Shown here: positions 6,893 through 59,135 of the stretch, one piece after another
Numbering within the stretch: position 1 is the stretch's first letter
Layout of the letters: the number at the start of each line of letters is the position of its first letter
From: Chiloscyllium plagiosum
Taxonomy: Eukaryota
Direction: 5' to 3'
DNA: 64,000 nucleotides
Assembly: GCF_004010195.1 (NCBI RefSeq)
Contig: NC_057718.1
Span: forward strand, 46,435,236-46,499,235
Translations under genes and position numbers: made by a program
The notes under the pieces: model-generated
Told to the model about the DNA's origin: nothing
The model's input: only the letters and a program-made list of their open reading frames with translations
Databases searched by the model: none

Positions 6893-7099
6893 TGAAAATA
6901 TGTTGCTGGAAAAGCGCAGCAGGTCAGGCAGCATCCAAGGAACAGGAGAATCGACGTTTCGGGCATAAGCCCTTCTTCAGGAAGCGCTTATGCCCGAAAC
7001 GTCGATTCTCCTGTTCCTTGGATGCTGCCTGACCTGCTGCGCTTTTCCAGCAACACATTTTCAGCTCTGATCTCCAGCATCTGCAGCCCTCACTTTCTC
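6893..7099. mobile_element. Penelope-derived fold-back element (family A), 80-bp inverted arms, 16-bp TSD
   Basis: Arms 6891-6970 and 6986-7065 with 1 mismatch. TSD TTGTTAAAATTATTGC at 6877-6892 and 7100-7115. Arm sequence matches the termini of the GIY-YIG-bearing copies at 9125 and 58260. Confidence 0.85.
6950..6982 (-). ncRNA. Minimal type-I hammerhead ribozyme motif (PLE family A)
   Basis: Minus strand reads CUGAAGA-A-GGGC-uuau-GCCC-GAAA-CG-UC. Core and stem II are intact, helix III is the palindrome ACGU, stem I is weak. Confidence 0.65.
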
Positions 7100-7383
7100 T
7101 TGTTAAAATTATTGCATATATTTAAGAAAAGATTCGAAACAGACCTTTCTAGGCCATCTGCAAACCTGCTGCAAGGGACAGAATTTAGACCAGCTAGATT
7201 CTACTTAGCATTTTAATCGTACACAGATATTTATAAATGACAAAAGATTTAATGAGCCTTCGGTGTTAAAAGTTCATTGGAACAACTAATAAATGTGTGT
7301 CTATGCATTTGGAGATGGTATGCTTATGTTAATAAGGTAGTATTTAAGCAGATTATGTGAACTCCCCAAGGTGGCTCATTCAT

Positions 7384-7531
7384 CCTCAGGACCTAGTCAA
7401 CTCCCTCAGCTGTTCCCTCAGGGCCTATTCAACTCCCTCACAGTCTACTCAACTCCTTCAGCCGTTCCCTCAGGGCCTACTCAACTCCCTCAGCCGTTTC
7501 CTCAGGACCTACTCAACTGCCTCACCTGTTC
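7384..7531. repeat. Degenerate ~32-bp minisatellite, about 5 units (CCTCAGGGCCTACTCAACTCCCTCAGCCGTTC)
   Basis: Repeated units are directly visible. Confidence 0.85.
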
Positions 7532-8294
7532 CCTCTTCTTACATCTTCGGCCTTTTAGAATCGGAGCATGATCTCACTTGATCACAATTCACTGGTCACT
7601 CAGTCTTCTCTTATACCTTGCAAAATTGGGTTTTCTACTTAATAATAAAGGCAAGATGGCAATAGATAGATTAGATCGTGTCCTTGCAGATGTGCAGCAC
7701 AACACTTCCAATTTTAAAGATAAAATCCTTTTTCATGAGTTTGTGTTCCTCTTTGCCAAACAAGCAAAACCGCAAGAATTAGGCAACTTAAAACTCCGTC
7801 ATGCACTTAAAGTGGCAGTTCTTGCTACCCAAACCTCTGCTAGAATTTCATGTGTGGACACAAGTAAAGGCAGGGGAACACTTTGTCCCTGCCTCCAACA
7901 CCCTCCACCCACCCTGTTACCTCTCTCTCTCACTTATATTTGGCCTCAGGGCCCTTATTGATTCTGGGGCCCTGCTGGGTGATTTGACAGCATCTGCCGC
8001 TGCTCCTGACGATATTGCCTGCACTGCAGACCTAGCAGCTTCTAACTGGCCAGCACTTCACAGTTTGGCCCCAGGGTCCTTAAACTCAGGGAAGACCCAT
8101 ACGTGGGCATTTAACTGGTTGGACCCACCTCACAAGAGACAGTGCGTGACTCCTGCCAGCTCTCCAGCCAGCAGGGTAAGATCCCTTTGCAAGCATTCAA
8201 TTCTATCCAATGCCTTTGGGAGGAAACAGAATACAAAAGACTGACAAAAATAAACAGAATTTACTCTTCTGAAAACAGCCTCGATGTATTTCCA

Positions 8295-8665
8295 GTAGAG
8301 TCCCTACAGTGTGGAAACAGGCCCTTCAGCCCAACAAATCCACACTGAACCACAGAAAAGTATCCCACCCAAACCCATTCCCCATTACTCTACATTTGCC
8401 CCTGATTAAAGCACCTAATCTTCACATCCCTGGACACTATCAGCAATTTAGCATGGCCAATTTACCTAACCTGCATATCTTTGGATTGTGGGAAGAAACC
8501 AGAGCACCTGGAGGAAACCCATGCAGACACAGGACAAACTCCCAGTTAGATGGATTAGTCAGAGGGAAACGGTCTGGGTGGGTTACTCTTCGGAGGATTG
8601 GTGAGGAGTTGGTGGGCCAAAGGGCCTGTTTCCACACTGTAGGGGATCTAATCTAATCTAATCTA
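8295..8665. mobile_element. HE1-like SINE 3' half (minus) fused to an inverted SINE tail (plus) ending in (CTAAT)n
   Basis: CCCTACAGTGTGGAAACAGGCCCT at the left end and its reverse complement near 8620-8644. Homologous to the SINEs at 44705 and 45170. Confidence 0.75.
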
Positions 8666-9124: not shown

Positions 9125-9943
9125 CAGGAGAAAGTGAGGACTGCAGATGCTGGAGATAAGAGTCAAGAGTGTGGTGCTGGAAAAGCAAGCAGGTCATGCA
9201 GCATCCGAGGAGCAGGAGAATCAACGTTTTGGGCAGGAGCCCTTCATCAGCAATGAGGATGGGAAGATGGACAGTTCATAGAGAGTGTACTGAGCTGGAA
9301 TGTTGAAATTGGGGTAAGGTGTGGAGAGGGGAAATGAGGAAACTGTGAAGTCCACATTGATGCCAGAGTCCAGAGGTAGAAGATGAGGCATTCTTCCTCC
9401 AGGCGTTGAGTGGTGAGGGAGTGGTGATGGAGGAGGCCCAGGACCTGCATGTCCTCAGCAGAGTTGGAGGGGAAGTTGAAATGTTCGGCCATGGGGTGGT
9501 GGGTTGATTGGTCCTGGGCCGCCTCCATCGCCACTCCCTCACCACCCAACGGTTGGAGGAAGAACACCTCATCTTCCGCCTCAGGACCCTTCAACCCCAA
9601 GGCATCAACGTGGAATTCCCCAGTTGCCTCATTTCCACACCTCCACCTTACCCCAGTTCCAACCTTGCAGCTCAGCAATGTCCCTATGACCTGTCCATCT
9701 TCCTTTATATCTATCCGTTCCACCCCCCTCTCCGACCTATCACCTTAATTCCCACCTCCATTCACCTACTGCACCCTCAGCTACCTTCTCCCCAGACCCA
9801 CCCTCCTCCCATTTATCTCTCCACCTCCCCCCCCCAAGGCTCCCAGCCTCATTCCTGATGAACGGCTCCTGCCCGGAACGTCGATTTTCCTGCTCCTCGG
9901 TTGCTGCATAACCTGCTGTGTTTTTCCAGCACCACACTCTCGA
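9125..9943. mobile_element. Penelope-like element (family A) 3' end: GIY-YIG C-terminus in inverted arrangement, 14-bp TSD
   Basis: Translations HPMAEHFNFPSNSAEDMQVLGLLH..RLEEECLIF (minus) and RLEEEHLIFRLRTLQPQGINVEF (plus). TSD CTGCTGACTCCCCA at 9111-9124 and 9944-9957. Both hammerhead cores are mutated at GAAA. Confidence 0.85.
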
Positions 9944-10009
9944 CTGCTGACTCCCCAGCGCCCTTCCACCATCTATAAAGCACTCGTGTAAAAAGGAAAC
10001 TGCAGCAGA

Positions 10010-12639: not shown

Positions 12640-13985
12640 AACAAAATCAGGGATTGCTGGAAAAACCCAGCTGGTCTGAGCGCATTGGTGGAGATGACTA
12701 AGTGATCACTGCAGATGCTGGAGATCAAAGTCGAGTGTGCAGTGCTGGAAAAGCACAGCAGCATCCAAGGACCAGGGGGAAAAAAAAAAAAATCGACATT
12801 TCCTGATGAAGGGCTTCTGCTTCTCAGATGCTGCCTGACCTGCTGTGCTTTCCCAGCAGCACTCTCTTGACCCAGCATCTGTGGAGGAAGCAGAGTTAAC
12901 GTTTCATTCTAGTAACCCTTCCTCAGAACTGATGGTAGCTAGGAAAGGTTGGTATGTACAGTATATGGAGGCAGTGGGGGCATAGTAAACAACGGATGGA
13001 GATAGAGTCCAGATGGAAAGAAACAATTGTCAGCCTGAGGAAATCATTAGCAACTAATGGGTAACATTAGTGGCTGACTTTGGGTTGTTTGTAGTAGCAA
13101 CCCATGTGATAGTAAGTTGTATGGGGTTAGAGTAGGAGATGCTGGTGGACATAGGGGAAGTGAGGACCAGGGGGACCCTATCGGTCTTGTTGAAGGGAAG
13201 AGGGGGTGGTGAGGACCGAGGTGTGGAGGCTGGGTCAGGCATGGCTGGAGGGCCTGTCAATCATGGTGAATGGGAATTATCAGTTGATGAAGGTGGTGGA
13301 AATTTCACAGGCCCCCTTGTCAAAAGTAGCATCATTGGAACAGTGGCAATGGAGAGCGAGAAACTGGGAGAACGGAATAGGGTCTTTAGAAGAAGCAGGG
13401 TGTGGAGAGGCATAGTCGAGGTAACTGTGGGAGTCGGTGCGTTTGTAGTGGTTATTGGTGGCCAGCCTATCCCCAGAAATGGAAACAGATGTCGAGGAAG
13501 AGAGTGGAGGAGTCAGCGGTGGACCGTGTGAAGATGAGAGCGGGGTAGAAATTGCAAGTGAAATTGATAAACTTTCCCAATTCAGGATGAGAGGGGGAGG
13601 CTACAGTAGGACCAGAAGAAGGAATGTTTAACATTCCTCAAAAGGGACAGACATAACTGAGGCCCACGTATATAATACCCATACACCCATGACCATACCT
13701 TTGGTGTGAAGAAAGTGAGAAGAGTAAGAGGAGAAATTGTTCAGGGAGAGGACGAGCTCAGGCAGGTGGAGAAGGATGGTGGTGGATGGGGATAGTTCAG
13801 GCCTTTTTTCCAGGAGGAAACTGTGAGGCCTGAGACCATCCTGATTGGGGTTGGACATGTAAAGGGATTGCACATGCATGGTGAAGAGAAGGTAGCTAGT
13901 GCCCGTGAATCGGAAACTCTGAAACTGATGTGAAGTATCAAAAGAATCACATTTGAGAGTGGAAAGGGACCAGACGAGAGGAGAA
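12640..13985 (-). mobile_element. Penelope-like element (family B) with RT remnants; a family-A mini element is nested at ~12694-12874
   Basis: Remnants LVLSLNNFSSYSSHFLHTKGMVMG and DRVPLVLT resemble PLE RT. Terminal hammerhead-like motif AGUU-CUGAGGA...GAAACGUU-AACU at ~12895-12931 on the minus strand, with stem II decayed. Confidence 0.75.
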
Positions 13986-15521
13986 TTCACTGGCCGAGTT
14001 CAGACTCATAACAGGATCAAGAGAGCTGTGGTTATTTACACAGCTGGACAGAATTGTTGACTTTGCTTCACTGACATCTTTATGTGGTTCTACCACTTTT
14101 CCTTCTGCTATGCTCTCTGTTGTAAATATTTCAATATTTATCTGCATACAACTAAGTAGGGTAAAGTATTCAAAGTTTCTATTATTTATATTTTAATGGT
14201 CTATTTGATAGAAAAGAAAGATTATCGAAGTGTCAAAGAGTTACTTTATTTTTTTTCTAAGCAGATTGATACACACCATTTTTACTATCAGGCTCATTGA
14301 TTCTGTACATAGGGTGAATGGACATGAAGTCCCTGTGCTGACTCATGCCCTGTTAAGGGACTAATGGGGCGATGAGACATGAGTTGGCATAGGTGGGATG
14401 GGGAGTAGCCTGGCAGACTATGACAAGTGAAGTACGAGGGCTAGAGGGCCTGAAATGTAACCAAATGATTGAGCCAGAGTCTGAGAGAACCATGGCATGC
14501 ACTCCAACCAGCCCATTTTGGCAACCCTAGTGGCCATCTGTTTCTCGGATGGTGGGTCCCACTCTAACCTGCACCTGTACTCCAGAACAAAATAGGTCCT
14601 TACAGGGCTGCCCTAGACGAGGGGATTGAGTCAAGGGGAGTAGAGACCTAGAGTCACAAAGATGAGAAATTAAGAGTTTGGGGCTAGGAACGTGTGTTAC
14701 CTGGTCGAGAAATAGCCAGGGTTCAGCATGGAAACTGGGGGATGGGTGCTGAAGCAGTATATGGGTTGATGGTCAAATCAGGAGTCAAGATAGGGAATAT
14801 CGAAGGTCACTAGCTGTGTTCAAGGATAGTGAACATTTGGAGTCAGACACAGGCCTGGAGAGTGATTAGTCAGGATCAGGCTTAGCTGGATTAGAACACA
14901 ATGATTGTATGGCTGTGAGGCAATGGTACCAACTAGAATGAGCCCATAGAAAGTACCAAACGTTCTGTATTGATTTGTTTTAAAAAAAAATTATTTCAGC
15001 TCTAAGACTCTAAAATCCACATTATCCACCCCTTGACTGGGCTATTGGAAAAACAGTGACAAATAAGCTTCCTGTCCTTTGCCATCTCAGCTACTGGGGA
15101 ACCGTATTTACCAATCTATCCAGTGATTGGGAGAGCCCCAGTATTCCTTTGTTTTAGATGTTCACAGAGCCGATCTTAACAGGGCTAATTCAACAGGATC
15201 ACTACAAATGGCATCAGTAGCTGCAAACTATGCAGAGGAAAGAGGACAGTCAGTGAAGTTTCCAATGTTGGTCAATAAAATGAGCAACTTTAAGTTTGTT
15301 GAACTAAGGAATGCCCACTTGAGCCAAATATCAAAGAGCATCTTATGCCTCTTCAACAATAATGTAATACAAGGCCATGGCCCTAACCTCCCAGTTCCAC
15401 CTTCACTCTGCTGCACCTCAGTTGGAAAGTGAGGGAAATTTCTTTTGAAGCTCCTCTGCTGGTTTCCAACTCTCTATACTATTTCCAACATTTTGCATTT
15501 AAATTATGGACTGGGGACGGT

Positions 15522-15541
15522 GGGGGGGGGGGGGGGGGGGG
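15522..15541 (+). repeat. G20 homopolymer
   Basis: Directly visible. Confidence 0.9.
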
Positions 15542-17179: not shown

Positions 17180-17358
17180 AGTTAAAAATCACACACCTGC
17201 CTATAGTCCAACAGGTTTATTTGGAAGTACTAATTTTCAGAGCACTGCTCTTTCATCAGGTAGCACACCAAATGCTAGTGCTTCCAAATAAACCTGGACT
17301 ACAACCGAGTGTTGTGATTTTTAAAAGTTGTCCATCCCAATCCAACAGCAGCTCCCCT
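17180..17358. mobile_element. Penelope-derived fold-back element (family C)
   Basis: Inverted arms TTAAAAATCACA..TAGTCCA..AGGTTTATTTGGAAG and CTTCCAAATAAACCT..GGACTA..TGTGATTTTTAA, plus an unpaired tail. A hammerhead motif lies inside. Confidence 0.7.
17228..17262 (-). ncRNA. Minimal type-I hammerhead ribozyme motif (PLE family C)
   Basis: UAC-CUGAUGA-A-AGAGC-agu-GCUCU-GAAA-AU-UA-GUA. Stem I is 3 bp, stem II is 5 bp, helix III is the palindrome AAUU. Confidence 0.7.
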
Positions 17359-17659: not shown

Positions 17660-17896
17660 AAAACACAAAGAACGGCAGATGTTAAAGATCTGAAACAAAA
17701 ACAGAAGTTGCTGGAAAAACTGAGCAGGTCTGGCAGCATCTGTGGAAAGTGAGTTAACATTTTGAGTTCGAATATGACATTTCTTCAGAGCCTGCTGAAG
17801 AAAGGTCATTAGATCTGAAACATCAAATCTGCTCTCTCTCTCTCCACAGATGTTGCCAGTCCTGCTGAGCTTTTCCAGCATTTTCTGTTTTTGTTT
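17660..17896. mobile_element. Penelope-derived fold-back element (family B)
   Basis: Inverted arms AAAAACAGAAGTTGCTGGAAAA.. and ..TTTTCCAGCATTTTCTGTTTTT. Plus-strand core CUGAAGA-A-AGGUC-auua-GAUCU-GAAA-CAUC at 17795-17824. Confidence 0.75.
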
Positions 17897-20444: not shown

Positions 20445-20660
20445 AAAAACTGCGAATGCTGTAAATCAGAAACAAAAACAGAAGTTGCTGGAAAAGCTCA
20501 GCAGGTCAGGCAGCATCTGTAAAGGGAAATTAAGAGTATACATTTCAGGTCCAGTGACCCTTCTGAGGGAGAGTCACCTGACCCAAAACATTAACTCTGA
20601 TTTCTCTTCACAGATGCTGTCAGGCCTGCTGAGCTTTTCCAGCAACTTCTGTTTTGATCT
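20445..20660. mobile_element. Penelope-derived fold-back element (family B)
   Basis: Inverted arms CAAAAACAGAAGTTGCTGGAAAAGCTCAGCAGG and CCTGCTGAGCTTTTCCAGCAACTTCTGTTTTG. Hammerhead cores are truncated. Confidence 0.75.
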
Positions 20661-21409
20661 TGAAAATATGTTGGTAAAGCCACTATTTCAGAGATAAGTG
20701 GTCTCCAGTGACCAACATATCAAACTTGTGCCCTGCTTGACTCATGCTGGTCTTAACCGTAAACTTTTCCAGTTTACTTCAATTGCCTTCCTATTCTTTC
20801 AGCATTTCCACTGAAAGGAAAATTCTCCATAACGATTAATTAAAACCTTTCATTTTCAAAACTCATTCCATGCAATTTACTTAACTCACAGCCGCATCAA
20901 GAACCAATTAGAATGGCTGGAACCAAGCAATGGGAACACTATATTGGCCTCTATGACTGATCAGTGCCCTTTGTGGAATAGGGGGAACAAATATGCCGAG
21001 TGGGCCCTCATGGCAGAACGGCAATGTCCCTACATCTGAGCCAGAAGACCCAGGCTTGGAGTCCCACTTGACCCGGAGATTTTTCATTTCAGTAATACGA
21101 ACAAGGGCAAGACTTATACAGTTACTGGTAGAGCCCTATTGAATGCTGTTGAACAGACAGACCTAGGTACATAGTTCTTTAAAAGTTACATCATAGGTAT
21201 AGAAGCTGGTAAAGGCAGCCTTTCGACGTTTGCCTTCATTGCTCAGACCATTGAGTATAGGAGTTGGGACATCATTTTGCGGTTAGAGAGGACATTGGTG
21301 AGGCCACCTTTGGAGTACCGTATACTGTACTGGCTCAAAGTTTGTGCGAAGATTTGTAGCTCGGGTGCTCATTGTTGTGGTTCTGTCCGCCGAGCTGGAA
21401 GTTTTTGTT

Positions 21410-21449
21410 GCAAACGTTTCGTCCCCTGGCTAGGCGACATCATCAGTGC
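21410..21449 (-). ncRNA. Minimal type-I hammerhead ribozyme motif (PLE family D), sense to the pre-mRNA
   Basis: GCA-CUGAUGA-U-GUC-g-CCU-agcc-AGG-g-GAC-GAAA-CG-UU-UGC. Confidence 0.78.
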
Positions 21450-21756
21450 TTGGGAGCCTCCTGCGAAGCGCTTCTTTTATGATAGTAGTGTTATCATACT
21501 ATCATATGACATACTATGATAGTAGTGTTATCATACTATGACACTACTATCATAGGACAAGTCAGACAGAGAACAGCCAGGGAATTCCTAGAGGCATGGC
21601 ATTCATCCACAAACTCCATCAACAAACACATCGACCTGGACCCAATATACCAACCACTACAGCGGACAGCTGAAACTGACAACCGGAAGCGGCAGGGACA
21701 GACCACTATAAACACCGGAGGAAACATCAAAGAAGCGCTTCGCAGGAGGCTCCCAA

Positions 21757-21796
21757 GCACTGATGATGTCGCCTAGCCAGGGGACGAAACGTTTGC
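21757..21796 (+). ncRNA. Minimal type-I hammerhead ribozyme motif (PLE family D)
   Basis: Identical to 21410-21449 on the opposite strand. CTGATGA at 21760-21766, GAAA at 21786-21789. Confidence 0.78.
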
Positions 21797-23489
21797 AACA
21801 AAAACTTCCAGCTCGGCGAACAGAACCACAACACTGTACTGGCTGCCCTGCTACAAGAAGGATATTATTATGTTGGAGAGGGTGCAGAAAACATTTACAA
21901 AGATGTTGTTATCAGGAATGGAGGGTTGAAGTTTATAAGGAAGGCTGGATAGGCTGGGACATTTTTCACTGGAGCATAGGAGGTTGAGAATTGACCTTTT
22001 TAGGGATTTATAAAACCATAAAAGGACATAGATAAGGTGAATAGCAAAGATCGTTTCTGTTGGCACAGGGGAGTTCAAAAGTATGGGGCATTTTTTAAGG
22101 TGAGAGGAGAAAGATTAAAAGGGGATCTGAAGGGTAATTTATTTTTAAAAAAAGAGGCTGGTTCAGATGTGGAATGAAATGTTAGAGGAACTGATAGATC
22201 CTGGTACAGTTACAACATTTAAAAGACATTTGGACAGGTAGGTGAATGGTTTAGAAGGAAGTGGGCCAAACACGGCAGATAGGACCAGTTTAGTTTGGGA
22301 AATTTGGTCACCATGGACGAAGGATCTGTTTCCATGTTGTACGGCACTAGGAGGTATGTCATAAACATGTCTATGCCAATTGATAGGGAAAACTCAGTAA
22401 ATTCGCCAATGTACATTCTCCCCCTCTCCATTGTTGGTCTGCAATGTCCTTCAAATGTAAATTACTCCATAACACCATAAAAGATAGGAGTGGAAATTAG
22501 GCCATTTGGCCCATCAAGTCTGCTCCCCCATTCAATCATGGCTGATGGGGTTGACAAACCTATATTCCTACTTTCTCCCTGTAACCTTTAATCTCCTTGG
22601 CAATCAAGAACTTGTATCTGTTTTAAATATCCTCAATGACCTGACCTCCACAGCCTTTTGTAGCAATGAATTCCACAGATTCAATACTCTCTGGCTAAAA
22701 AAAAAAATCTGCTTATCGCCATTCTAATGGGTCTTCCCTTTACTATTCCCAATGTCCACACTGTCCAGTATTCGAAGTTTCAATCAGATCCCCCCTACAT
22801 CCGTCTAAACAACGTGCATCGTCCTAGAGTCTTCAAATGTTCCTTCTACGTGAACCCATTCATTCCTGGGATCATTCTCGTGAACCGCCTCTGGACCTGC
22901 TCCAGGGCCAGTAGATCCTTCTTGGAGGTATGGGGCCCAAAACTGCTCAGAATACTCTAAATGTGGTCTGACCAGAGCCTTATAAAGCCTCAGAAATTCA
23001 TCCCTGCTTTTATATTATAGTCCTCTTGAGATAAATGATAATATTGTATTTGCCTTTCGAACCACAGACTCAATGTGCAGTTTACCTCAAGAGAAACCTC
23101 ACTCTGACTTCCAAGTCCCTTTGCACTCCAGATTTCTACATTTTCTCACCATTAGAAAACAATCCATGCCTCGATTCTTCCTACCAAAGTGCATGACCTC
23201 ACACTTCCTCACATTGCATTTTATCTGTCACTTCTTACCCCATTCTCCTAACCTTTCTAAATCCTTCTGCAGCCTCCTTGCCTTCTCAATACTACTAGCC
23301 CTTCTCCCTAGCTTGGCATTATCTGCAGACTTAGCCAGAATGCCCTCAATTCCTTCATCTAGATCATTAATGTATAAAGTGAAAAGTTGTGGCCCCCAAC
23401 ACTGACCCTTGTGGAACATCACCAGCTTCCATCCTGAGAAGGACCCTTTTATCCCCACTCTCTGCCTTCTGCCAGACAGCCAAACTTCT

Positions 23490-23797
23490 GTTGTGGTTTT
23501 GTTCGCCGAGCTGGGAATTTGTGTTGCAGACATTTCGTCCCATGTCTAGGTGACATCCTCAGTGCTTGGGCGCCTCCTGTGAAGCGCTTCTTTGATGTTT
23601 CCTCTGGCATTTGTACAGGTTTGAATCTGCCGCTCCGGTTTCCGGAGGAAACATCACAGAAGCGCTTCACAGGAGGCTCCCAAGCAGTGAGGATGTCACC
23701 TAGACAGGGGACGAAATGTCTGCAACACAAATTCTCAGCTCGGCGAACAGAACCACAACAACGAGCACTCGAGCTACAAATCTTCTCACAAACTTTG
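23490..23797. mobile_element. Penelope-derived fold-back element (family D), 12-bp TSD
   Basis: Inverted arms ~23489-23606 and ~23642-23760, plus a 37-nt tail. TSD AGCCAAACTTCT at 23478-23489 and 23798-23809. Confidence 0.9.
23525..23566 (-). ncRNA. Minimal type-I hammerhead ribozyme motif (PLE family D), sense to the pre-mRNA
   Basis: GCA-CUGAGGA-U-GUC...GAC-GAAA-UG-UC-UGC with a GUC cleavage triplet. The plus-strand partner (~23684-23723) has C3 mutated to G. Confidence 0.7.
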
Positions 23798-26194
23798 AGC
23801 CAAACTTCTATCCATGCTAGTATCTTGCTTCTAACATCTTGGGCCCTTATCTTTCTCAGCAGCCTACTGTGCAGCACCTTATCAAAGGCCTTGTGCAAGT
23901 CCAGATAGATAACATCCATTGGTTCTCCTTGGTGTAACCTGCTCATTACCTCCTCAAAGAATTCTAGCAGATTGGTCAGGCATGACCTCCCCTTGATGAA
24001 ACCATGCTGACTTTGCCCTATTTTACCATGCACCTCTAAGTATTCAGAAATCTCATCCTTCACAATGGACTCCACAATCTTACTAATGACTGAGGTCAGG
24101 CTAATCAGCCTGCAATTTCTTGTCTTTTGCCTGACTCCTTTCTTAAACGGGAGTTACATTAATGATTTTCCAGTTTTCTGGGACCCTCCCTGATTCCAGT
24201 GATTCCTGAAAGACCACTAACATCTCCATTATCTCTTCAGCTATCTCCTTCAGAACTCAAGGGTGTAGCCCATCTGGTTCAGGTGATCTATCCACTTTCA
24301 GACTTTTCAGTTTTTCTAGCACCTTCTCCTTGGTGATGGTCACCATATTCATCTCTGCGCCTCCAACTCTCTTGAAGTTTTAGGATATTACTCATGTCTT
24401 CCACCGTGAAGACTGATACAAAGTACTTATTCAGTTCCTCAGCCATTTCCCTGTTCTCCATTGCGACTTCTCCAGTATCATTTTCCAGCGGCTCAATGTC
24501 CTTTGTATATTTAAAGAAACTCTTGTAACCTTTCCTAATATTACTGTCATATTTAATCTTCTCCCTCCTTATTTCCTCCTTTGTTGTCCTCTGTTGCTCT
24601 TTCTAGTCTTCCCAATCCTCTGGTTTCCCACTGCCCTTCGCCATATTATATGCTTATTTTTGGCTTTAATGCTGTCCCTGACTTCCCTGGTTAGCCATGG
24701 TTGACTCATCCTCCCTTTCGATTGCTTCCTTCTCCTCGGGATGAATTTTTGCAATGTCGCCCGAATTACTCTCAAAAACTCCTGCCATTGCTGTTCCACC
24801 GTCTTTCCTTCTAGGCTCCTCTCCCAGTCAATTCTGGTCAGCTCCTCCCTCATGCCTCTGTAATTGCCTTTATTCAACTGTAATACTGTTATATCAGATT
24901 CCAGCTTCTCCCTCTCAAATTGCAGAGTAAATTCTTTCACATTATGGTCACTGCTTCCTAAGGGTTCCTTCACCTTAAGCTCTCATTAAGTCTGCTTCAT
25001 TGCACAACACTAAATCTAGAATTGCCCATTTCCTAGTGGGCTCTGCTACAAGCTGCACCAATATCGTGTAGACTTTTCTTGCAATCCACTATCAACCTGA
25101 TTTTCCCAGTACACCCACATGTTGAAATACTCAACTGGAAAACATGGGAGACTTACTGGTGGTGGTTAATATATTTTAAAAATACTACGGCTGATTTGAT
25201 AGGGAAAACGTTCAGTTGGGTGAACTTTTGGATATAATAGTAAAAAAAAGATTTTAAAATAATCTCCATTGTTAACAATCACCAGGCAGATACATGAAAA
25301 CAAGCTTTTTTTTTAAACAAACAAATATCAGTGCATAGATGATGCCCATACTGTTTGTGGAGATGAGGAAGAAATGTTGATAAAATTGGATTTTAAATGT
25401 AACAGAGAATGCCAAAGTGGAGTGCAGTGAAACCTGGACCTTAACAATCTGCATTTGTGCAGCAGCATTAACTTAAGGCCCAAGATGCTTCAATCCATAT
25501 AATTTAGATTGCAAACAGAAGGATTATAGTTACATCACTAGGCTATTGCATAATTAACCTTGTAACTATTTAAGAGAGAGGAGGGTCAACTGTGGAACAG
25601 CTCATGTTAATCTTCTTATATGGACAACTACCATTCAATGCTTATCAAAATAAACTAAATCCTTTTTTAAGTTATAATCACAAGTCATTTTCAAAATGCA
25701 GCAAAACCTCACAGTTGAATAAACTTACTTGTACATATATTAGATCCAATGTCCGAACCAAATACCAGTAACATGTAACTGCCCCAGGGGTCAACCATCT
25801 GCTGCCACCCAGTATTCTGTCAGACAGCTTTACTGCACTGGTGTTCAGAGTGAAAAGGCACAGTCAGAATAAAGATGTGCAATGACTAAAGGGAAAAGCT
25901 CCACTAGAGAAGAATTGATTATGTTAATTCAGGGACAAGTTTAAGGAAGATTGCCAACTAGGACATAACACCATTACATATCAAGGCAGATAAAGAACAA
26001 TGGGAACAATAAAGACAGATAAAATGACAACAAAGCTTATAAATAGTTGCATTTAGCCTAGTAGCGCCTTTGTGAAAATATTTGACTGTGATATTAACAC
26101 TAAACCTGCCAATGCGCTTAGCGCGATTGGGAGCTAAGTATTCATGTTGTAAAATGTTTAGAAAGGACAAGGACATTAAACTTTAATAAAATGA

Positions 26195-35580: not shown

Positions 35581-36076
35581 GAGTTGAGTGTATATCATTA
35601 TTAGAGATCATGAAAGATTTGTAAAGTCACGTCTTCCTTCCAATTTCACTATGGACATAGTGGACAACTAGCACATTTTCCACTTTGTAGATTACAAGCA
35701 ACATTATTCATCAGAATGCTCCAAGGACCATTGGTAAATTGTCCAAGGCCCCAAAACACTAACTATGAATGCATTTGAATCTGAAATTGTGGTTGGTAGA
35801 ATTAAAGAATCCTAATTTCTCTGTCAATCATTCCTCATAAAAGATGATAAAACTGATGCACAAAGGGGTTCACTGAGGTTTGCTACACTTTAACAGGGGT
35901 TAGGGGTGGAAGTGCAGTTGTTTGCAATCATTGCAGGCTCCAACATCAGAAGCCTGGAAACAATAGAATCTTTACTATTAAATAGAAATCAGTTTCATGA
36001 AAACAATGCACAGGGTTGTCAGACTACATTTATTCCCAGATAGTGATATTAAATTTCAAGACAGTAATTTTTGGAA

Positions 36077-36295
36077 CAAAAATAGAAATTGCTGAAAAAG
36101 CTCACCAGGTCTGGCAGTATCCGTGGAGAGAAACCAGAATTAACGTTTTGGGTCTAGTGACCCTTACTGACAACTGGACCCGAAACATTAACCGTGCTTT
36201 CTCTCCACAAATGCTGCCAGACCTGCTTGACTTTCTCAACAATTTCTGTTTTTGTTTCTAATTTCCAGCATCTGCAGTTTTTTCAGTTTCTTTTT
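36077..36295. mobile_element. Penelope-derived fold-back element (family B), 14-bp TSD
   Basis: Inverted arms. TSD AGT(A/T)ATTTTTGGAA at 36063-36076 and 36296-36309. Confidence 0.75.
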
Positions 36296-41695: not shown

Positions 41696-42382
41696 TGTTT
41701 ACCCTTGCACACAAATCAATTCACTTTTTTTTTTAAAACCACAAAAGAAATGCCCCAGTGACTGTGAATTCTTTGCTAACAGTAAATCTGTACTGATTGC
41801 AAGCATATAGTAGTTGAGAGTTTTTCATAACTGGGCTCTTTGCAGGCAGGAGTGCATTTGTAGTGAGCCAAGTTTGTACAGGTAGTCCCCATTATAGATG
41901 TGAAAGACAAACTATTCACAAACAAGAAAAACCTGCATTTACATAGCAACGTTTGCAACTACTGCATGCTTCAAAGTCTTTTACAATCAATAAAGCCTTT
42001 CTTAAATTAAAAAAAGAAAGTCACTGTCGTAATTTAGAAAATATAGCAGCCAATATACGTAAAGCAAGATCTGACAACAGCATGTGGTGATCAAATGATC
42101 AGGTTGTTCAGTACAGCTACAGCACTAGTATTTGCTCAGCAGTGTGGAACGATGGCTGTTGTCTTGTGCCAACTTAAACACTGTGGTGTCAAGGAAATAT
42201 AAGCTTATTGTGGCTTTAGGTTTAATGGAAGGTTGATCATTATTGAAGATATTAATGAATTATTCCAATTCTGTTTCTGGGCATGCCAATATCCCATATG
42301 TCAATACAAATATGGGAGATAATGTTGCTAAGTGCCTGCATCTCACCTAATGAGCAAATTGGTGAGACAGATAAAGACCTAA

Positions 42383-42625
42383 GTCTAGACTAGAGTGCTG
42401 GTGGAAAAGCACAGCTGGTCAGGCAGCATCCAAGGAGCAGGAAAATCAATGTTTCAGGACTGAAGGGCTTTTGCCCGAAACGTCGATTTTCCTGCTCCTT
42501 GGATGCTGCCTGACCGACTGTGCTTTTCCAGCACCACTCTGATCTGAACTCTGGTTTCCAGCATCTGCAGTCACCACTCTAATCTAGACTCTGATTTCCA
42601 GCATCTGCAGTCCTCACTTTTGCCT
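42383..42625. mobile_element. Penelope-derived fold-back element (family A), 14-bp TSD, internal ~38-bp tandem duplication
   Basis: TSD AGATAAAG(A/G)CCTAA at 42369-42382 and 42626-42639. Inverted arms are visible. Confidence 0.8.
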
Positions 42626-43945
42626 AGATAAAGGCCTAATCTGAATCCTTCCAACCACGTCTCCACCCTACCATAATACCAGCACAGTTCTGTACAGTCA
42701 TAAATGACCTTTTATCTGACAAATGCAAACTGTTCCTCCTCTGCCTTTTTAACCCACCTGCTGTCCTGGACACAGTTGATCACAGCATCTCCCTGCATTG
42801 TTGTGCAGCTAGACAGACCGCTGTTCTATGCCAATCTTGTTCATCAGAGCCAAGAATTACCTACAGTGGCTCTGGTCACAAGTGTGTAGTTATAATATTG
42901 TTAAACTGTTACATATGTTGCAAAACATAAAGCTAATTTGGGTTTAAAATGGATAAGCAGTCATACAAAATGGCACCCAAAAGCCACATGACTTATCTTG
43001 CCTGCTGTGGCTGCAATCAATGTTATCATGAGAAACAAATCAGAAAAAGGTAATTAAATAATTGAAGGATTCCACCACTGTTCAATGAACCCTCAAAAGA
43101 TGTGAAAATTCAAAGCTCCTGTAAGGTTCAACAAGAGGCAAGAGAGACATCACAAGGAATTCTAATATAATTGATTTTGCATTATACAACAATGATTCAT
43201 AAGTTTTACATTTACATGCATTTCATTTGATTTTGATAAAAACAGACCAAAAACAACTTAAAGTGAATTATCTTAAAACATTAGAAAAACATGTTGAAAT
43301 TGGAACTGCTTCTTAACAGGGACACAGAAGTAGGCATCCACACAAACCAGTTAAAGGACACTGTACTGAACTAGGCTACCGAACATGTGATGCTGCAAAA
43401 TTGAATCAAAAGAGCCTTGACTCATTCCCAAGACCTGTTCTGCTTTGTCTGCATGTGTTAGCAGCCTCCAACTATTCAACTGCAAATGTCATTGCAGCTT
43501 TGGAATCGGACTTCAACCAATTCACTTCAGAAAAGGAATCTTCAAACAAGCCTGGTCCACCATGACATTCGGGACTGATCTCATTTTCATGCACAACTTT
43601 TACCCTTATTTAAAGTCTTTGTATCTGCATCTTTTAGCTAATAACATTACCATCTTTATTCAAGAATCTTTCATTAACAGTTGTACAATAAGCAAACATT
43701 TTGTTTGATTTAAATCATAAAGCTAGATCACTAGTTTATTTTTGAATAGAACAATTGACAATTAAGAGGTAGCTACATACAAGTTCATTCAAGTTAGTCG
43801 TTCACACTCTGCGTAATTATTTCTGTTGCCCCCAAAGACCTATCCTCGGCTCCCCTATTTCTCATCTATTGCTGTCTGCCTGAGGCCCAGTCAGATCTTT
43901 CACAACCCTGCTGTCATATTTGACCTAAGAGAAGCTTCCAAACAT

Positions 43946-44142
43946 AGGCAAAGGTGAGGACTGCAGATGCTGGAAACCAGAGTTTAGATCAGTGTGGTGC
44001 TGGAAAAGCACAGCAGGCCAGGCAGCATCCGAGGAGCAGGAAAGTCCACATTTCGGAAGAGCTTTTGCCCGAAATGTCGATTTTCCTACTCCTCGGATGC
44101 TGCCTGGCCTGCTGTGCTTTTCCAGCAACACTCTGATCTAAA
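43946..44142. mobile_element. Penelope-derived fold-back element (family A), 11-bp TSD
   Basis: Inverted arms. TSD CTT(C/T)CAAACAT at 43935-43945 and 44143-44153. Confidence 0.8.
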
Positions 44143-44214
44143 CTTTCAAACATGCCCACCCCAACAGCAAAATCACCTACTAATGTAGCATGGAACATTA
44201 ATAACAATAAATAT

Positions 44215-45169: not shown

Positions 45170-45480
45170 ATAGTTTCCCTACAGTGTGAAAACAGGCCCA
45201 TCGGCCCAACAAGTCCACACCGACCCTCTGAAGAGTAGCCCACCAAGACCCATCTTCCTCTGACTAACGAACCCAACACTACGGGCAGTTTAGCACAGCC
45301 AATTCACCTGACCTGCGCGTCTTTGGACTGTGGGAGGAAACTGAAGCAGCTGGAGGAAACCCACGCAGACACGGGGAGAATGTGCAAACTCCACACAGAC
45401 AGTCACCCAAGGCTGGAACTGAACCTGGGTCCCTGGAGCTGTGAGGCAGCAGTGCTAACCACCTCGCCACGAGGCTGCCC
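45170..45480 (-). mobile_element. HE1-like SINE, near full length
   Basis: Reverse complement of the 44705 family. Confidence 0.85.
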
Positions 45481-52841: not shown

Positions 52842-55415
52842 TTCTTAAGTATCTATTAAGAATTCACTATTTTAAAGTTCATTGCATAAAATAAAGCATT
52901 TATTACACAGTTAACATACTTCAGCTACTTAATTCTTTATGAAAAGAAGCACGTGTTCATAGCTCCACCTCAAAAACTCCATAACACTTAGCCATCAATC
53001 AAACTTTGAACTGATATGCATCACACTGTGATAATGGTAGATTGTGAAATTAGCAATACAGCACAAATTAAAAAATGATATCCATAGGCTAACATCAACA
53101 GATAGAGTGAAATAGCAAACAAATTTTTTAAACACTGCAAGCAACTTTTTCAAAAAATTAATGCTTGGAAATTTGAGTGCTTTAACTGTTTACTTAACAG
53201 CTTGACCATTTCAATGCCATTATCCACATTTTAATGCACATGCATGCCTACTTCTAACAATTCCAAATGGTACCCTACCTCTTCAAATAATTGCAGCATT
53301 TTTAGATAGTGACCTGTAAGGTCTGTAAATTCTGATTTGTAAATTTCATTGTTGAAATTTGGATCTGTTTAAAGGCAGCTGCAATTTAATTTGTATCCAC
53401 CTTCATAAAATGCAGATGCACAAACTACAGCCCATCTCCACTTTCCCCTGGTGAAAACAATGGGCTCAGAGGTCAAGGATGTTACTTCAACAATCAGGAC
53501 TCAAATGCATTTTGACTAAGCCAGAAATATACTGTTGTTAAGAATATTCAGGACTTTTGCATCAGACGATAGGCTAAATTTGGTTTGCACACAAATAATT
53601 TTTAAGCTGGTCTACAAAATTTATAATTCCATTCTAAAACACAAAATAAATAATCAATTAATGAACTTAATTAAAAAGTATTCATTATAAACCATTTGGA
53701 ACTATTATATAGATAGGAAGGAATACCCTTTACTAAGCTGATTGAAAAGTTCTGATAAACTGTAATAAAGGGTACACTGGTTTATCATTTGGATTTTTGG
53801 TAGACATCAGATGAATATATTAAGGATATAAATAAGTCATCCAAGATGCAAGCCATTATGAAACAGTGCATACATTATGTTGTAAGGGCACTTATGCTAA
53901 ATCGGTGAAACAAAAAATGCCACTAATATGGTGATAAGAAGGCACATTCATGCATATTAAGAAGCTCAGAGATTGATTGCTTTATTTGTAAAATAAAATC
54001 TAAAAGTGCAGATATTATATCATTCTTAAAGCAGAAAACACACACCTGGAGAGCAAAACCTGCCCCTGCAGATCTGGCCAGCTATTAGAAGAATAACAAT
54101 CTGAATCACAGTTCCACAGGAAAGCAATAGCTGATTGCAAGATGGGGATCAGCACACGGTGACCAATATTAGCTAGAGACTGCAGAATCAAACATGTGCA
54201 AGCTGATGATTATATAAATTACAAAACAATGAAAAGAGATCTGAATATTTTGGTGCATTCAAGTCTGGAGACAATCATCAATTGGTATCTTGCCGGAGAT
54301 CAAAACAACAGTAAGTCGTATGATAACATCTTATAATGACATAGCTGGATACAGTTTATCCCACAATGACCCCTTTATTTCCCATATGATGCCAGTTATT
54401 TGTCAGTTTTCCTTTTAGAAAATCAAACTGACATTTGTGACCCATAAAAATCAGAACACGAACACGGATACAAGGGGAAGAATGCTTCATGTGGGTTAGC
54501 AAATTCAGGAATGGCAAAGATGCAGAACGTGAGACTTTACTGTAATGCATTGCAATAATAATATTCTGTATTGTTACCTAGAATCCTGTGGATTTGAGAA
54601 TCTGAAGGTAGAATAAAGGGCATTCTGAATTTTCCACTTTTGACCATTCCCAGACTCACTGCCTGGGGACAGCTCTCCTCTCCAATCAGTGAATCAGGAA
54701 GTTATTGAAATTTGTTTCCTCTTATAAATTTCCGGGGTGATTGAAAGTGAAATTTTTGCAACCCCAAATAACCACTGTAGCAAACAATAACAAACAAATG
54801 AATAAACGACAAAACAAACACCAACTACTCCAAATAGATAAAGGTTATTGTACAGAGCTACAGAGAGGCAGAATCTCGGAGAGAACGGGATTCAGCACAA
54901 ACAGCCAGAAGTACAAAAATCAGAGGTTAATTTTGATTTCAACATTGCATCTAATTTAAAATATTCAATCTGAATTTAAGAATAACTAATTTTGACTGCA
55001 GAAAACACTTAATATACAAGTTTGCTGCCACTTGCCATAATTAAAGATTCAAAACCAGAATTTCAATGCACTTTAAAGTGCTGGAAGAAAAAAAAACTTA
55101 ACAGCAAGGTATTTTTAAGAAAACGGATTATTATACATCCAAACAAATCCACCTGGAAAGAAATCATATATTGCAGCCTATTCCCACAGCAAAATGTCAG
55201 AAGTTGCTTCTTTATATGCTGTGGTGATAACTTCATCATCCAATACATTTGATGCAACAATGGGTGAGTGCTGCAGCTTAAATTACAAAGATTATGACGC
55301 ACTTCAATCCCTTTGTAACTAATTATTTTCATCGATAATAGGTGGTCGTGAAGTTTCAGTTTTTGGAAAAAATCAAACAGTTGCAGAACGTGATGTCACA
55401 ACACTAGTAAAAACT

Positions 55416-55668
55416 AAGAAATTCAGTGGTTATTCAAAAAATGTTTAAATTATTCAGCTACCTTGGTCAATGGATTTTATTCAGGTTTCCTCTCCCACAG
55501 TTGAGATTTTTTTTGGGAGTTGACTGATGGTCTAAGATTTCAAGAAATTCAGGGTTATTCAAAAAATGTTTAAATTATTCAGCTACCTTGGTCAATGGAT
55601 TTTATTCAGGTTTCCTCTCCCACAGTTGAGATTTTTTTTGGGAGTTGACTGATGGTCTAAGATTTCAA
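55416..55668. repeat. Tandem duplication, 126-bp period, 2 copies
   Basis: 55416-55541 and 55542-55666 differ by a single 1-nt indel. Confidence 0.95.
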
Positions 55669-56104
55669 TTAGCTTTGCAGATTTTGTAGGTTGACGTGAC
55701 GCTCATTATAGAGGCAGGCTATTAGTAGCAGGTTGTGCAGAACAGACAACAGATTTTTCCAAGCACATCAACCACAAAACATGACCAGTAACAAGATAGT
55801 TATCTTTGCTTCAGCAGTCACTTTTACTTGTTTGAATTCTGCAAACAAAGCTCAGGCTGTTCTGTGGTTCAGAAACACAAAACATACTTGACTTGCTGAT
55901 TATGGACTCTTTACTGCCATCTACAGGAATATGTGACTCAATGCATGCATCTCCAAACAACTGGGATAGAGAGCAAAAAGCAATATTGTTTGGAAGAATA
56001 TCATGGTTTTCAATTAATTTCTGGTGGTTAAGATTTAATGTTCAGTATATTATTCTGTTGCTTTAGCATTATCAATTTTCAGTATTTGCCATTACAACAG
56101 GAAA

Positions 56105-57295
56105 ACAGGGAGGGTCCCAGAGAGCTGGAAAACTGCTGTTGCTGCCCTCTTGTTTAAAAAGGGAGTAACAGAAAAGACAGAAAATTCCAAACGGATTAGC
56201 CTGACCTCAGTCAATGGCAAGATTTTGGAGTCCATTGTGAGGGATAAGATTTCTGAATATTTGGAAGTGTATGGTAAAATAGGGCAAAGTCACCATGGTT
56301 TCATCAAGGGGAGGTCATGCCTGACAAATCTGTGACCATTCTTTGAGGAGTCATCGAGCAGGTTAGATCAAGGAGAGCCAATGGGTGTTAGGAGAGCAGG
56401 CAAAAAAGTAACAACAAAATACAGTGGAAACTCCAAAGAAAATCACAACTGTGGGAGAGGAAGCCTGAATAAAATCCAGTGACCAATTTAAACTTTTTTT
56501 TAAAAAAAAACCACGGAAATTCTTAGTTTTTAATGGTGTTGTGACATCACGTTCCGCAACGCAGTTCAATTTCTTCAAAAAAAAACAAACTTCACTTTGG
56601 TAAGAAGGCGAGAGGCACAGACTGTTTTCTAAACGGGGAGAAAATTCAGAAATCTGGAGTACAAAGGAATCTAGTCCAGGATTCTCTGAAGGTAAACTTG
56701 CAGATTGAGTCAGTAATTAGGAAGGCAAATACTATGTTACTATTCATCTTGAAAGGACTAGAATATAAAAGCAGGGATGCATTTCTGAGGCTTTATAAGG
56801 CTCAGGCCATATTTAGAACATTGACCCTGGAGCAGGTCAAGAGGAGGTTCAAGAAAATGATCCCAGGAATGAAAGGCTTAACAATAGGGAGGAACATTTG
56901 AGGAGTCTGGGACTATACGCAGAGTTTAGAAGGAGGTGGGGGGATCTGATTGAAACTCACCGAATACCGAATGGTAGAGTGGATGTTGGGAAGATGTTTC
57001 CACTGGCAGGAGAGACGAGGACCCAATGGCACAGCCTTAGAGTAAAGGGAACGCCCATTAGAATGGAGATAAGGAGAAACTTCTTTAGCTGGAGTGGTGA
57101 ATCTGTGGAATTCATTACCACCGCAGGCTGTGGAGGCCAGGTTATTGCGTATATTTAAATCAGAGATGGATAAGTTCTTGGTTGCCATGGGGAATCCAAG
57201 ATTACAGGGAGAAAGTGGGAAAATGGGGTTGAAACATGTTCGAATGGCGGAGCAGACTCGATGAGCCAGTGGCCTAATTTCTGCTTTTATGGAAA
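56105..57295 (+). mobile_element. CR1 LINE, internally deleted or interrupted
   Basis: ISLTSVNGKILESIVRD..HGFIKGRSCLTNL and IRKANTML..LEYKSRD..LRLYKA. Confidence 0.85.
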
Positions 57296-58259
57296 ACATA
57301 ATGAATTGAATCTAGAAACATGGACAAAAGGGACACAACTAAAACAACCTCAAATCCTCACCTTATTTCATTAACACATGTACTGCATCATTTATTCCAG
57401 AAGACTTCACAAAGGGAATAAGACCCTGAACTGTTGGCAGTTTAGTCTCTGCAAAGAAACCAGTAAGAGAGGCAATTAAAACAGAAGAAATGGGACTAGT
57501 TTAGTTTGGGAATATGGCCAAAGGATCTGTTTCCATGCTGTATATGACTGTCACTGTTCAGTGACTGCTGCTGGAAACAAAAGATATCAGAGAGAAAAAC
57601 AAAAAGGAAAAAAAAAAAAGATTTCACCACTGCAATCTACTTTGCCACATAATCAAAGAATCTTTTTCCAATATGCTCTCTTTCCTAGCTTTTAGGATTC
57701 ACCATTTATCTCCAGAAAGATGCCAGGTACTTATCTTTCTGAATTTTAATCTGATCTAGTGGCTGACATCAAGGAAATCCACTAAAACCCAACAAGTTCT
57801 TATTTACATACGTAGGGTCTTAATGAAATAATCAAGATTCAACTGCAATCTTCAGTAATGGCCTGGATGAAGCATCTTTCATAATTTTCCTCACCAGTTC
57901 AGAGAACACCCAAGCAGGTAGATTTATTAACTGTCCCCACAGACCAATAAATGGTAGAGTTGCTTCTGCAGGAACCCAGATGGAAACCACAAGTTTCCTC
58001 TGCTCAAAGTCCAGTTCATCCTTTATAATACGGCCCTCAAATTCAACCTCAGCGATTGCTATCAAGGCTATCACAAGGTTATTTACTAGAAGTTCTTGTT
58101 AATTCTGCTGACAGGAAATGTATTGTTAATAACACTAACAAGCTACTGGAACACCATTTAAAAGGGGAATATTACCACCCCTAGGGTTGTAATAATCAGA
58201 TGAAAATGTAAGCCTTTCCAAGGATGAATAACTCTTCTTGCTGGATTATAATCCAGCAG

Positions 58260-59135
58260 AGGAGAAAGTGAAGACTGCAGATGCTGGAGATCAGAGTCGA
58301 AGAGTGTGGTGCTGGAAAAGCACAGCCAGTCAGGCATGATCAGAGGAGCAGGAGAGTCGACATTTCGAGCATAAGCTCTTCATCAGGAATGAGGGGGAGG
58401 CCCAAGGGGCTGAGAGATAAATGGGAAGGGTGTGAGTCGGGGGGCGGGGGGGAGAGGGGTGGTAGCTGGGAATGCGATAGGTAGATGAAGGTGGGGGTGA
58501 AGGGGATAGATCGGAGAGGAGGGTGGAGCGGATAAGTGAGAAGGAAGATGGACAGGTAGGACAATTCAAGTGGGCAGTGCTGAGTTGGAGTGTTGGATCT
58601 GGGATGAGGTAGGGGGAGGAGAGATGAGGAAACTGGTGCAATCGTTATTGGTGCTGTATGGTTGGAGGATCCCAAGGCAGAAGATGAGGTGTTCTTCCTC
58701 CAGGCGTCGGGTGGCTTGAATTTGGTGGTCTGGGAGGGGAGATGACGAAACTGGTGAAATTGGCTGGGGGAAGAACGTCTCATCTTCTGCCTTGGGGCCC
58801 TCCAACCACACTGTATCTATTTCAATTTCACCATCTTCCTCAAATCCCCCCCCCATCTTATCACAGATCCAACCCTCCAACTCAATACCGCCCTCTTGAA
58901 CTGTCCTACCTGTCCATCTTCCTTCCCATCAATCCGCTCCACCCTATCACCGTCACCCACCACCTTCATCCACCTATTGCTTTCCAAGTTACCTTCCCTC
59001 TTCCCAGCCCCTTCTATTTATCTGTCAGTCCCAATTAATCCCCCATTCCTAATGAAGAGCTTATGCCTGAAATATTGACCCACCTCAGAGATGCTGCCTG
59101 ACTTGCTTTGCTTTTCCAGCACCACACTTTTTGAC
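58260..59135. mobile_element. Penelope-like element (family A) 3' end in inverted arrangement
   Basis: ATRRLEEEHLIFCLGILQP (minus) and EERLIFCLGALQP (plus). Terminal arms as in the 9125 copy. Confidence 0.85.
58352..58390 (-). ncRNA. Minimal type-I hammerhead ribozyme motif (PLE family A), sense to the pre-mRNA
   Basis: AUUC-CUGAUGA-A-GAGC-uuau-GCUC-GAAA-UG-UC-GAC. Confidence 0.65.

Follow-up and report, generated by a model that had tools for sequence, protein, structure and literature searches.

Why does one stretch of shark DNA hold a dozen inverted repeats, six of which keep an intact hammerhead ribozyme core on at least one arm? The stretch is a 64,000-nucleotide piece of the Chiloscyllium plagiosum genome (NCBI RefSeq assembly GCF_004010195.1, contig NC_057718.1, positions 46,435,236 to 46,499,235 of the forward strand), analysed over its whole length and called the window below. 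It contains 12 fold-backs and one long solo copy of Penelope-like elements (PLEs). An original prediction, made from the letters of the window, had assigned such pieces to several Penelope-derived families and suggested that they may form a retrozyme-like or miniature inverted-repeat transposable element (MITE)-like class of non-coding units that propagates itself. We favour a plainer reading, to which we give a probability of about 0.75: the pieces are single or head-to-head copies of the pseudo-long terminal repeat (pLTR) of at least four PLE families that carry the published minimal hammerhead, and each was likely made at its own insertion by a reverse transcriptase that copied only the part of the RNA between its 5′ end and internal start sites. 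The short pieces lacking an open reading frame (ORF), which we call stubs, are likely ordinary by-products of insertion rather than a new self-copying class.

The hammerhead motif itself is genuine and occurs far above chance. A window-wide scan for CUGANGA and GAAA on either side of a stem II of 3 bp or more, with room for one extra nucleotide, gave six exact motifs, starting at 6980(-), 58386(-), 17795(+), 21446(-), 21760(+) and 23562(-), and all six have one extra nucleotide between A9 and stem II. A family C motif at 17228-17262(-) was read by eye as CUGAUGA-A-AGAGC-AGU-GCUCU-GAAA-AU-UA. The places named in the original prediction thereby stood, except that the family B motif at 12895-12931(-) retains its core while its stem II has decayed. 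The family B copy at 17795 closes stem II with an A-U instead of a G-C pair, and the second arm of a family D fold-back (23683-23720) has the dead core GUGAGGA. A strict descriptor, in which the closing pair had to be G-C and GAAA had to be followed by a self-complementary or TG/CA dinucleotide and then by U and H, was applied to 464 kb (the window plus 200 kb per side). It found 20 motifs, against a mean of 0.1 in 20 second-order Markov simulations, 18 of which gave none and two of which gave one. The extra nucleotide after A9, for which the original prediction had asked any search to allow, was present in all 20 motifs. Helix III was a palindromic ANNU in 12 of them and a CpG-decayed TG/CA in the other 8, which agrees with the predicted minimal type-I hammerhead with a vestigial self-complementary helix III.

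A relaxed descriptor that did not demand stem pairing, applied to 0.99 Mb, returned 238 sites, 184 of them with at least 3 stem II closing pairs. Among these 184, the closing pair was mostly G-C (137) or G-U (38), the helix III dinucleotide was CG in 103, TG in 28, CA in 24 and GC in 21, and the extra nucleotide was A in 126 and U in 54. Stem II differs between families by compensatory changes (GGGC/GCCC, GAGC/GCUC, GGAG/CUCC, GGGU/ACCC and GUUA/UGAC). Within families, however, the ribozyme core (conservation 0.91) is kept no better than the tail (0.91) and little differently from the flank (0.88), and the best-kept block lies at module positions 62-97 (0.93-0.99). It is thus between lineages only that constraint on the ribozyme can be seen, and the expectation that the core would be more conserved than its flanks held between families but failed among copies. 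An Rfam scan matched no hammerhead family, either at the gathering score or at E<=10, as expected for a motif that lacks helix III. Of the 19 weak matches to other families at E<=10, most were between hairpins and microRNA precursor models. Lünse, Weinberg and Breaker are said to have found in 2017 that PLE hammerheads cleave as dimers; a minimum-free-energy fold of two ribozyme copies lacked the expected helix III dimer, and we gave this fold no weight.

Families A, B and D are the tails of coding PLEs, which supports the Penelope origin proposed for the arms of these families. A search of the genome for family D returned 1,324 candidates, of which 40 were scored and proved 95-100% identical. 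The D arm codes for the C-terminal end of an ORF that includes ...YKIPCKDC..YIGQTGR.... Relatives of this ORF in orectolobiform sharks carry RVT_1. One of them, P0010, matches GIY-YIG at 22.4 bits (cut-off 22.6 bits), and the D ORF is 54% identical to P0010 over residues 347-449, the stretch that holds this match. A protein search of the genome gave 117,287 candidates. Two loci preserve fuller units. L232 has two direct copies of the D module separated by 2.5 kb (303-407 and 2806-2913), and a 567-amino-acid open frame that starts in the first module passes through the hammerhead and matches RVT_1 at 44.3 bits (cut-off 29.6 bits). At L230 an inverted truncated copy is followed by a direct copy with ORF and then by a 3′ module, the modules lying at 460-567 and 2803-2910. 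Reading from the 5′ end of the family D unit, one meets the first AUG at A9-U-G10.1, which makes the extra nucleotide the central letter of the predicted start codon.

In families A and B we found coding remnants only. Long family A copies (6,790 candidates, roughly 82-85% identical) end sharply on the 3′ side and are truncated at various points on the 5′ side, and their GIY-YIG-like peptide aligns to the same stretch of P0010 as the D ORF (E 2e-7). Family B has a remnant of the reverse transcriptase thumb that is 51% identical to the family A peptide (E 2e-15) and matches residues 201-259 of P0012 (E 4e-4). The ~800-bp A copies and the D copies hold endonuclease ORF remnants, and the description of the units as non-coding is to that extent wrong. 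Nor are the arm sequences all unrelated, as had been thought: A and B share a terminal block of about 35 nt (GCUGCCUGACCUGCUG..CCAGCA), and a profile of the A module recovers B copies. Within the window, tblastn with four PLE relatives matched only the family D remnant, and direct pLTRs on both sides of an ORF were not found for A, B or C in five loci. As a separate observation, three predicted proteins of related sharks (P0004, P0005 and P0011) each include a stretch with 67-90% identity to the endonuclease ORF of family D. Their host-gene names are MAP3K7 isoform X3, 5'-nucleotidase domain-containing protein 1 isoform X3 and CUE domain-containing protein 2 isoform X1, and the stretches may be either exonised PLE pieces or artefacts of the gene models.

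One stub in the window, found by inverted-repeat detection and copy alignment, is the A1 short fold-back at 6893..7099. Its 85-nt arms are 98% complementary. Only the direct right arm has the 35-nt tail, the left arm being inverted and without one, and the whole is bracketed by 16-bp target duplications (6877-6892 and 7100-7115). By direct reading and by scan it holds an intact minimal hammerhead at 6945..6984 on the minus strand, CUGAAGA-A-GGGC-UUAU-GCCC-GAAA-CG-UC, and the opposite arm ends inside stem II. The original prediction had placed the motif near the element end; in the fold-backs it is central, at the inner 5′ end of the arm and 62-97 nt from the outer end. A genome search with the 216-bp A1 unit gave 802 candidates, and all 40 of those scored span the whole unit at 92-100% identity. 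Similar short-unit searches gave 2,801 candidates for family B and 2,630 for family C, and the local density of about one A/B-type module per 5 kb bears out the view that the genome harbours many such elements. Roughly a fifth of the sampled 31-letter words from window 6600-7400, corresponding approximately to its repeat part, also occur in sequencing runs labelled as two other organisms, so that other species seem to have the young A1 stub sequence in almost the same form.

The insertion sites of these copies bear on how they moved. We aligned 30 A1 copies, which are 92-98% identical and lie in unrelated flanks. Target duplications of at least 12 bp were present at 25 of the 30; their length varies from 12 to 18 bp, and 14 of the 25, as well as the window copy (6877-6892), end in TTATTG(C), which suggests a preferred cleavage site. 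Short length, inverted arms and target duplications are also what one would expect of MITEs or other fold-back DNA transposons moved by a transposase. Their target duplications would not, however, be this long and variable, nor would their ends be unequal, with a tail on one arm only. Together these two features practically rule out MITEs. Moreover, the arms are the 3′ ends of retrotransposons with a reverse transcriptase and a GIY-YIG endonuclease, and the centres vary between copies. We consider the transposon explanation almost certainly wrong.

The one-sided tail is general. Of 73 short fold-backs, 62 have the tail of about 35 nt on one arm and not on the other, where independent arms would give at most 50%. 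The outer ends of the two arms correspond to the two start sites of reverse transcription known for PLEs, and this places the tail on a single arm. The left outer end always lies at an internal reverse-transcription start site and never runs into flanking sequence, and left arms range from 18 to about 100 nt. The two arms of a fold-back agree at polymorphic sites (61 of 70 and 59 of 67), and all five common polymorphisms are shared by the stubs and 12 long copies.

If fold-backs were copied as such, their centres should be inherited, and the original prediction had named centre breakpoints that differ in every short copy as the mark of independent truncation products rather than of a self-propagating class. 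Among the 30 A1 copies we found 27 different centre strings, some of them mirror images of one another (L062 versus L077/L086). DNA contigs of three samples contained more than 260 different centre joints on the A1 window copy, short-read contigs breaking at the repeat. The centre junction thus differs in almost every copy, which argues that each fold-back was made at its own insertion and, by the yardstick just given, argues against a self-propagating palindrome. One could still suppose that a hairpin RNA is reverse-transcribed end to end, with small slips at its tip. Recurring centres (three identical ones among 30 in A; 10 of 26 in C that begin 'ggtagc') and arms that differ at module position 26 would fit such whole-unit copying. 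We find it very doubtful: mirror images and 27 distinct centres in 30 near-identical copies, left arms of such variable length and a left outer end that never reaches the flank are not what it predicts, and a hairpin of about −170 kcal/mol would be a poor template.

Where the arms begin on the inner side provided a further constraint. Of 21 unbiased family D arms, 10 start within 17 nt of the start of the direct copy at L230, about 45-50 nt upstream of CUGA; 8 others are longer and 3 lie between. As the D arms begin at the direct-copy start, the inner end of a D stub is the 5′ end of the unit, and the stub is a pLTR without its ORF. The position of this pivot upstream of the ribozyme also means that the ribozyme is not the pivot, and we rejected the stem II hairpin and the AAGCGCUU palindrome as candidates for it. 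Random 5′ truncation alone was rejected as well, given that the ends cluster: in a wider set of 290 arms, 171 of the 5′ ends fall at module positions 9-16, in addition to the grouping of D arms just described. The 3′ ends of the same arms fall at module positions 140-143 in 131 cases and at 106/97 in 35. In A, B and C alone, the unit appears to start almost at the ribozyme, some 5 nt 5′ of CUGA, and by comparison with D this fixed inner end would be the 5′ end of the full RNA.

These data can be combined into a mechanism with the help of related elements. For Poseidon of Anolis carolinensis (PAc), reverse transcription starts at two internal sites one tail-length apart, both target strands are cut and extended, and the start region is situated a short way into the ORF (Frangieh et al. 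2024, PMC11167929). Excerpts available from Arkhipova et al. 2013 (PMC3846280) describe an inverted pLTR 37 bp shorter than the direct one and an optional 31-bp tail, and those from Craig et al. 2021 (PMC8557442) an inverted 5′-truncated copy with a 30-40-bp tail at one end. The same excerpts (PMC3846280, PMC8557442) hold that palindromes at inverted junctions suggest self-priming and that pLTRs suffice in cis for mobilisation in trans. Two start sites, two-strand cutting and an inverted pLTR with a tail together predict the structure of the shark fold-backs. We propose that the PLE RNA has a start region close to each of its ends. Reverse transcription from the 5′-proximal start site, or on a short pLTR RNA, would then yield a cDNA that reaches only to the RNA 5′ end. 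The inverted arm may be added during integration, by priming on both target strands or by self-priming, with a junction that would vary from event to event. The hammerhead would be a passenger in the stubs, since a fold-back transcript, whose hairpin we computed at −169 to −178 kcal/mol, would lock it into that hairpin.

A retrozyme-like route, by contrast, would have tandem ribozymes excise a monomer that is circularised and then reverse-transcribed. The motif is there for it, and the available part of a 2026 preprint (Li, Clavereau and Pollet) derives animal retrozymes from PLE pLTRs. The arrangement of the copies points the other way. An unbiased sample of 144 arms, taken from the 464 kb and the flanks of retrieved loci, resolves into 30 short fold-backs, 3-5 long fold-backs and about 74-78 solos, and the ORF-free form made of an inverted and a direct pLTR accounts for 30 of about 109 A/B-type insertions. 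Neighbouring modules in this sample are head to head in 30 cases, head to tail in 6 and tail to tail in 2, and there are no arrays; the absence of tandem arrays speaks against retrozymes. The tightest tandem arrangement in the 464 kb lies about 41 kb to the right of the window (L151, 46540442-46540717), where two A-type modules stand head to tail, 14 nt apart, adjoining an inverted arm; this single dimer would also fit a retrozyme. Yet only 2 of the 290 arm 5′ ends lie at the predicted cleavage site, and the minimal motif lacks the loop-loop contacts that define retrozyme hammerheads (PMC7229834). The RNA data, one polyA single-cell run under the same species label that is poorly suited to 5′ ends, had no point at which read starts or ends piled up, including the cleavage site and the boundary. 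No joints were reported for this run, from a library unsuited to circular RNA, and a look among sequencing runs for ones containing the stretch gave no RNA run. In Anolis, too, reads starting at the cleavage site were absent (PMC11167929), with which the shark run, itself weak evidence, agrees. On balance a retrozyme-like cycle appears extremely improbable for these elements.

A subtler possibility is that the stubs, although rebuilt as hairpins at each insertion, form a non-autonomous family that sustains itself. Such a family would have its own promoter and 5′ end, the block recognised by the reverse transcriptase and both start sites, and would be re-mobilised in trans by PLE protein. Several observations would sit well with this. 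Short solos and arms have sharply defined 5′ ends (about 20 short solos begin at (C)AUUC|CUGA), copy number is very high at about one module per 5 kb, and the short A copies are young and homogeneous, as judged from the 40 whole-unit copies scored. In the excerpts of PMC3846280, pLTRs are reported with promoter motifs and as sufficient in cis. The module is possibly over-represented in RNA, albeit by a weak measure, and the stubs could be transcribed on their own. On the other hand, we saw no variants private to the stubs, the five common polymorphisms being present in the long copies as well. The reads of the single-cell run (1,828 on a long copy and 401 on the window copy) came from both strands and followed DNA copy number, and among the 1,828 there was no pile-up of read starts at the boundary, in a library that is poor for 5′ ends. 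Finally, the D boundary coincides with the start of a full-length copy, and ordinary PLE mRNA therefore explains it. We judge self-sustaining stubs to be unlikely. If they did exist, they would be a parasite of PLEs among the most numerous repeats of this shark genome, with the hammerhead riding along.

Several results weigh against our own reading, by which the stubs are by-products of PLE insertion. Some centres do recur: 3 of the 30 short A copies have the same centre, and of the 26 C centres that could be read, 10 start with 'ggtagc'. In 20 of 46 pairs the two arms have different letters at module position 26, and in nine copies selected by their right arm it is G on the tail-less arm and C on the tailed arm. 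Family C has longer copies, in which we found no coding sequence, and tblastn with four PLE relatives matched nothing upstream of four C copies. Pfam searches with five arm-encoded ORF pieces gave 0 families, and none of the five ORF-bearing A/B-type loci (L233-L237) has a module running into its ORF. Of 146 tailed copies, 0 continue past the tail, and they have no common downstream sequence. RNA depth per DNA word depth, a poor measure, is several-fold higher on the module than on the upstream 3′ untranslated region. The addition of the inverted arm is a step that we infer, and the meaning given to the boundary 5 nt before CUGA in A, B and C derives from the analogy with family D.

The remaining pieces in the window illustrate the range of forms that an insertion can take, from long fold-backs to fragments without a hammerhead. 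Two A2 long fold-backs have arms that extend into the endonuclease C-terminus. One, at 9128..9959 (about 815 bp; inverted repeats and A-module profile), has a 14-bp target duplication and two decayed hammerhead cores, and the other, at 58262..59135 (about 870 bp), has an intact hammerhead at 58352-58390(-) and a right-arm copy decayed to CUAAUGA. The left arm of the latter (58262-58643) is 97% identical to a further contig locus (L032) whose 150-nt flank is 100% identical, and this locus is probably a haplotig or an assembly duplicate. Three A-type short fold-backs were identified with the A-module profile: 12698..12882 (also read directly) is decayed and has a central A-run, 42377..42640 (also an inverted repeat) has a duplicated tail and no complete core, and 43945..44144 (likewise) has no hammerhead, both arms ending inside stem II. 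Family B is represented by the long solo copy on the minus strand (12880..14300), which is 5′-truncated and comprises the hammerhead at 12895-12931 and the thumb remnant at 13283-13570, and by three short fold-backs. That at 17693..17896 has a hammerhead at 17795-17824(+) with the A-U closing pair and a CA-decayed helix III; at 20475..20655 both cores are decayed, and the third, at 36070..36261, is decayed too (the last two by inverted repeat and A-module profile). The short family C fold-back spans 17203..17320, the helix III of its intact hammerhead, at 17228-17262(-), being AAUU.

Of the two family D fold-backs, that at 21370..21836 has a left arm of 112 nt and a right arm of about 296 nt, with an endonuclease remnant (21528-21770) in the right arm. 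It is the only fold-back in the window with intact hammerheads on both arms (21410-21449(-) and 21757-21796(+)). Its centre, at 21475-21559, is a small local palindromic duplication (tgatagtagtgttatcatactat...) rather than element sequence. The other, at 23489..23800, is short, has a tail on the right arm only and carries a hammerhead at 23525-23566(-) with CUGAGGA and a UG-decayed helix III. Beyond the Penelope pieces, inverted pairs of another repeat lie at 44720-45464 (290-nt arms, 86% complementary) and 8296-8650 (94-nt, 79%). The arm of this repeat starts with a tRNA-like head (...ggtggctcaggtggttagcactgctgcctcacagc...gggttcgattc), and the pairs look like two short interspersed nuclear element copies in opposite orientation, not Penelope. 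The region 55380-56560 contains nested inverted repeats of 54-55 nt, 89-93% complementary, with a direct duplicate at 55463 and 55588.

What follows from these results is mainly practical and mechanistic, for they open no new class of ribozyme-bearing mobile element. As Rfam misses the motifs while the hairpins draw sub-threshold matches to microRNA precursors, PLE stubs could be mislabelled, and in the annotation of shark genomes this could concern hundreds of thousands of copies. The stub population is also a large natural data set on Penelope integration, in which a one-sided tail, a fixed inner boundary and a variable junction recur, features that fit the two-start-site, two-strand mechanism measured in vitro for the lizard element.

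Comparison with published PLEs shows how much of this picture is familiar. The insertion unit of endonuclease-bearing (EN+) PLEs, as given in the available excerpts of PMC3846280 and PMC8557442, has the same inverted copy placed head to head, a difference of about 35 nt in length between the arms and a tail at one end, the same variable target duplications, heavy 5′ truncation and a hammerhead in the pLTR. The full layout described there is seen in shark family D, at L230 and L232. The shark differs in that an ORF-free form is common and extremely abundant; the excerpts describe solo pLTRs and captured DNA flanked by pLTRs, not stubs as a major component of a genome. The motif likewise corresponds to the minimal PLE hammerhead (Cervera and De la Pena 2014, PMC4209133). 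Both have the CUGANGA...GAAA core, an unpaired nucleotide between 9 and 10.1, the G10.1-C11.1 pair, a palindromic 15.2-16.2 without a helix III loop and a short helix I, and in both a genome holds many consensus families, which show compensatory changes. The same work reports paired motifs on opposite strands at distances of 100-700 bp; its main text does not include cartilaginous fishes among the genomes it names; cleavage of the shark motifs is a prediction.

For PAc, the parallels extend to the reaction itself (PMC11167929). Its ORF starts inside the hammerhead at stem II, as that of family D does at A9-U-G10.1, and two internal start sites about 35 nt apart define its tail, as in the shark. 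Its AC-rich start region is shared by family D and not by A, B or C, which also differ in that their extra nucleotide is A instead of U, so that the AUG does not form there. Cutting and extension of both target strands, as in PAc, would give two outward-facing arms of the kind that we know in the shark from sequence alone, and the ATT target preference of PAc is comparable to the TTATTG(C) ends of the shark target duplications.

Animal non-LTR retrozymes (Cervera and de la Pena 2020, PMC7229834; the 2026 preprint), as far as their available parts describe them, are likewise short, non-coding, hammerhead-bearing and likely derived from PLE pLTRs. They form head-to-tail tandem arrays, however, with canonical type-I hammerheads and circular RNAs (PMC7229834), whereas the shark elements are dispersed inverted pairs with minimal hammerheads. 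A full-text literature search did not find a paper on PLE hammerheads in sharks, and the available part of the preprint by Li, Clavereau and Pollet includes one chondrichthyan, with tandem retrozymes only. Earlier publications already contain the motif, the inverted pLTR and the tail, and they also connect pLTRs with non-autonomous hammerhead repeats; what is added here is a quantified picture of how common ORF-free stubs are.

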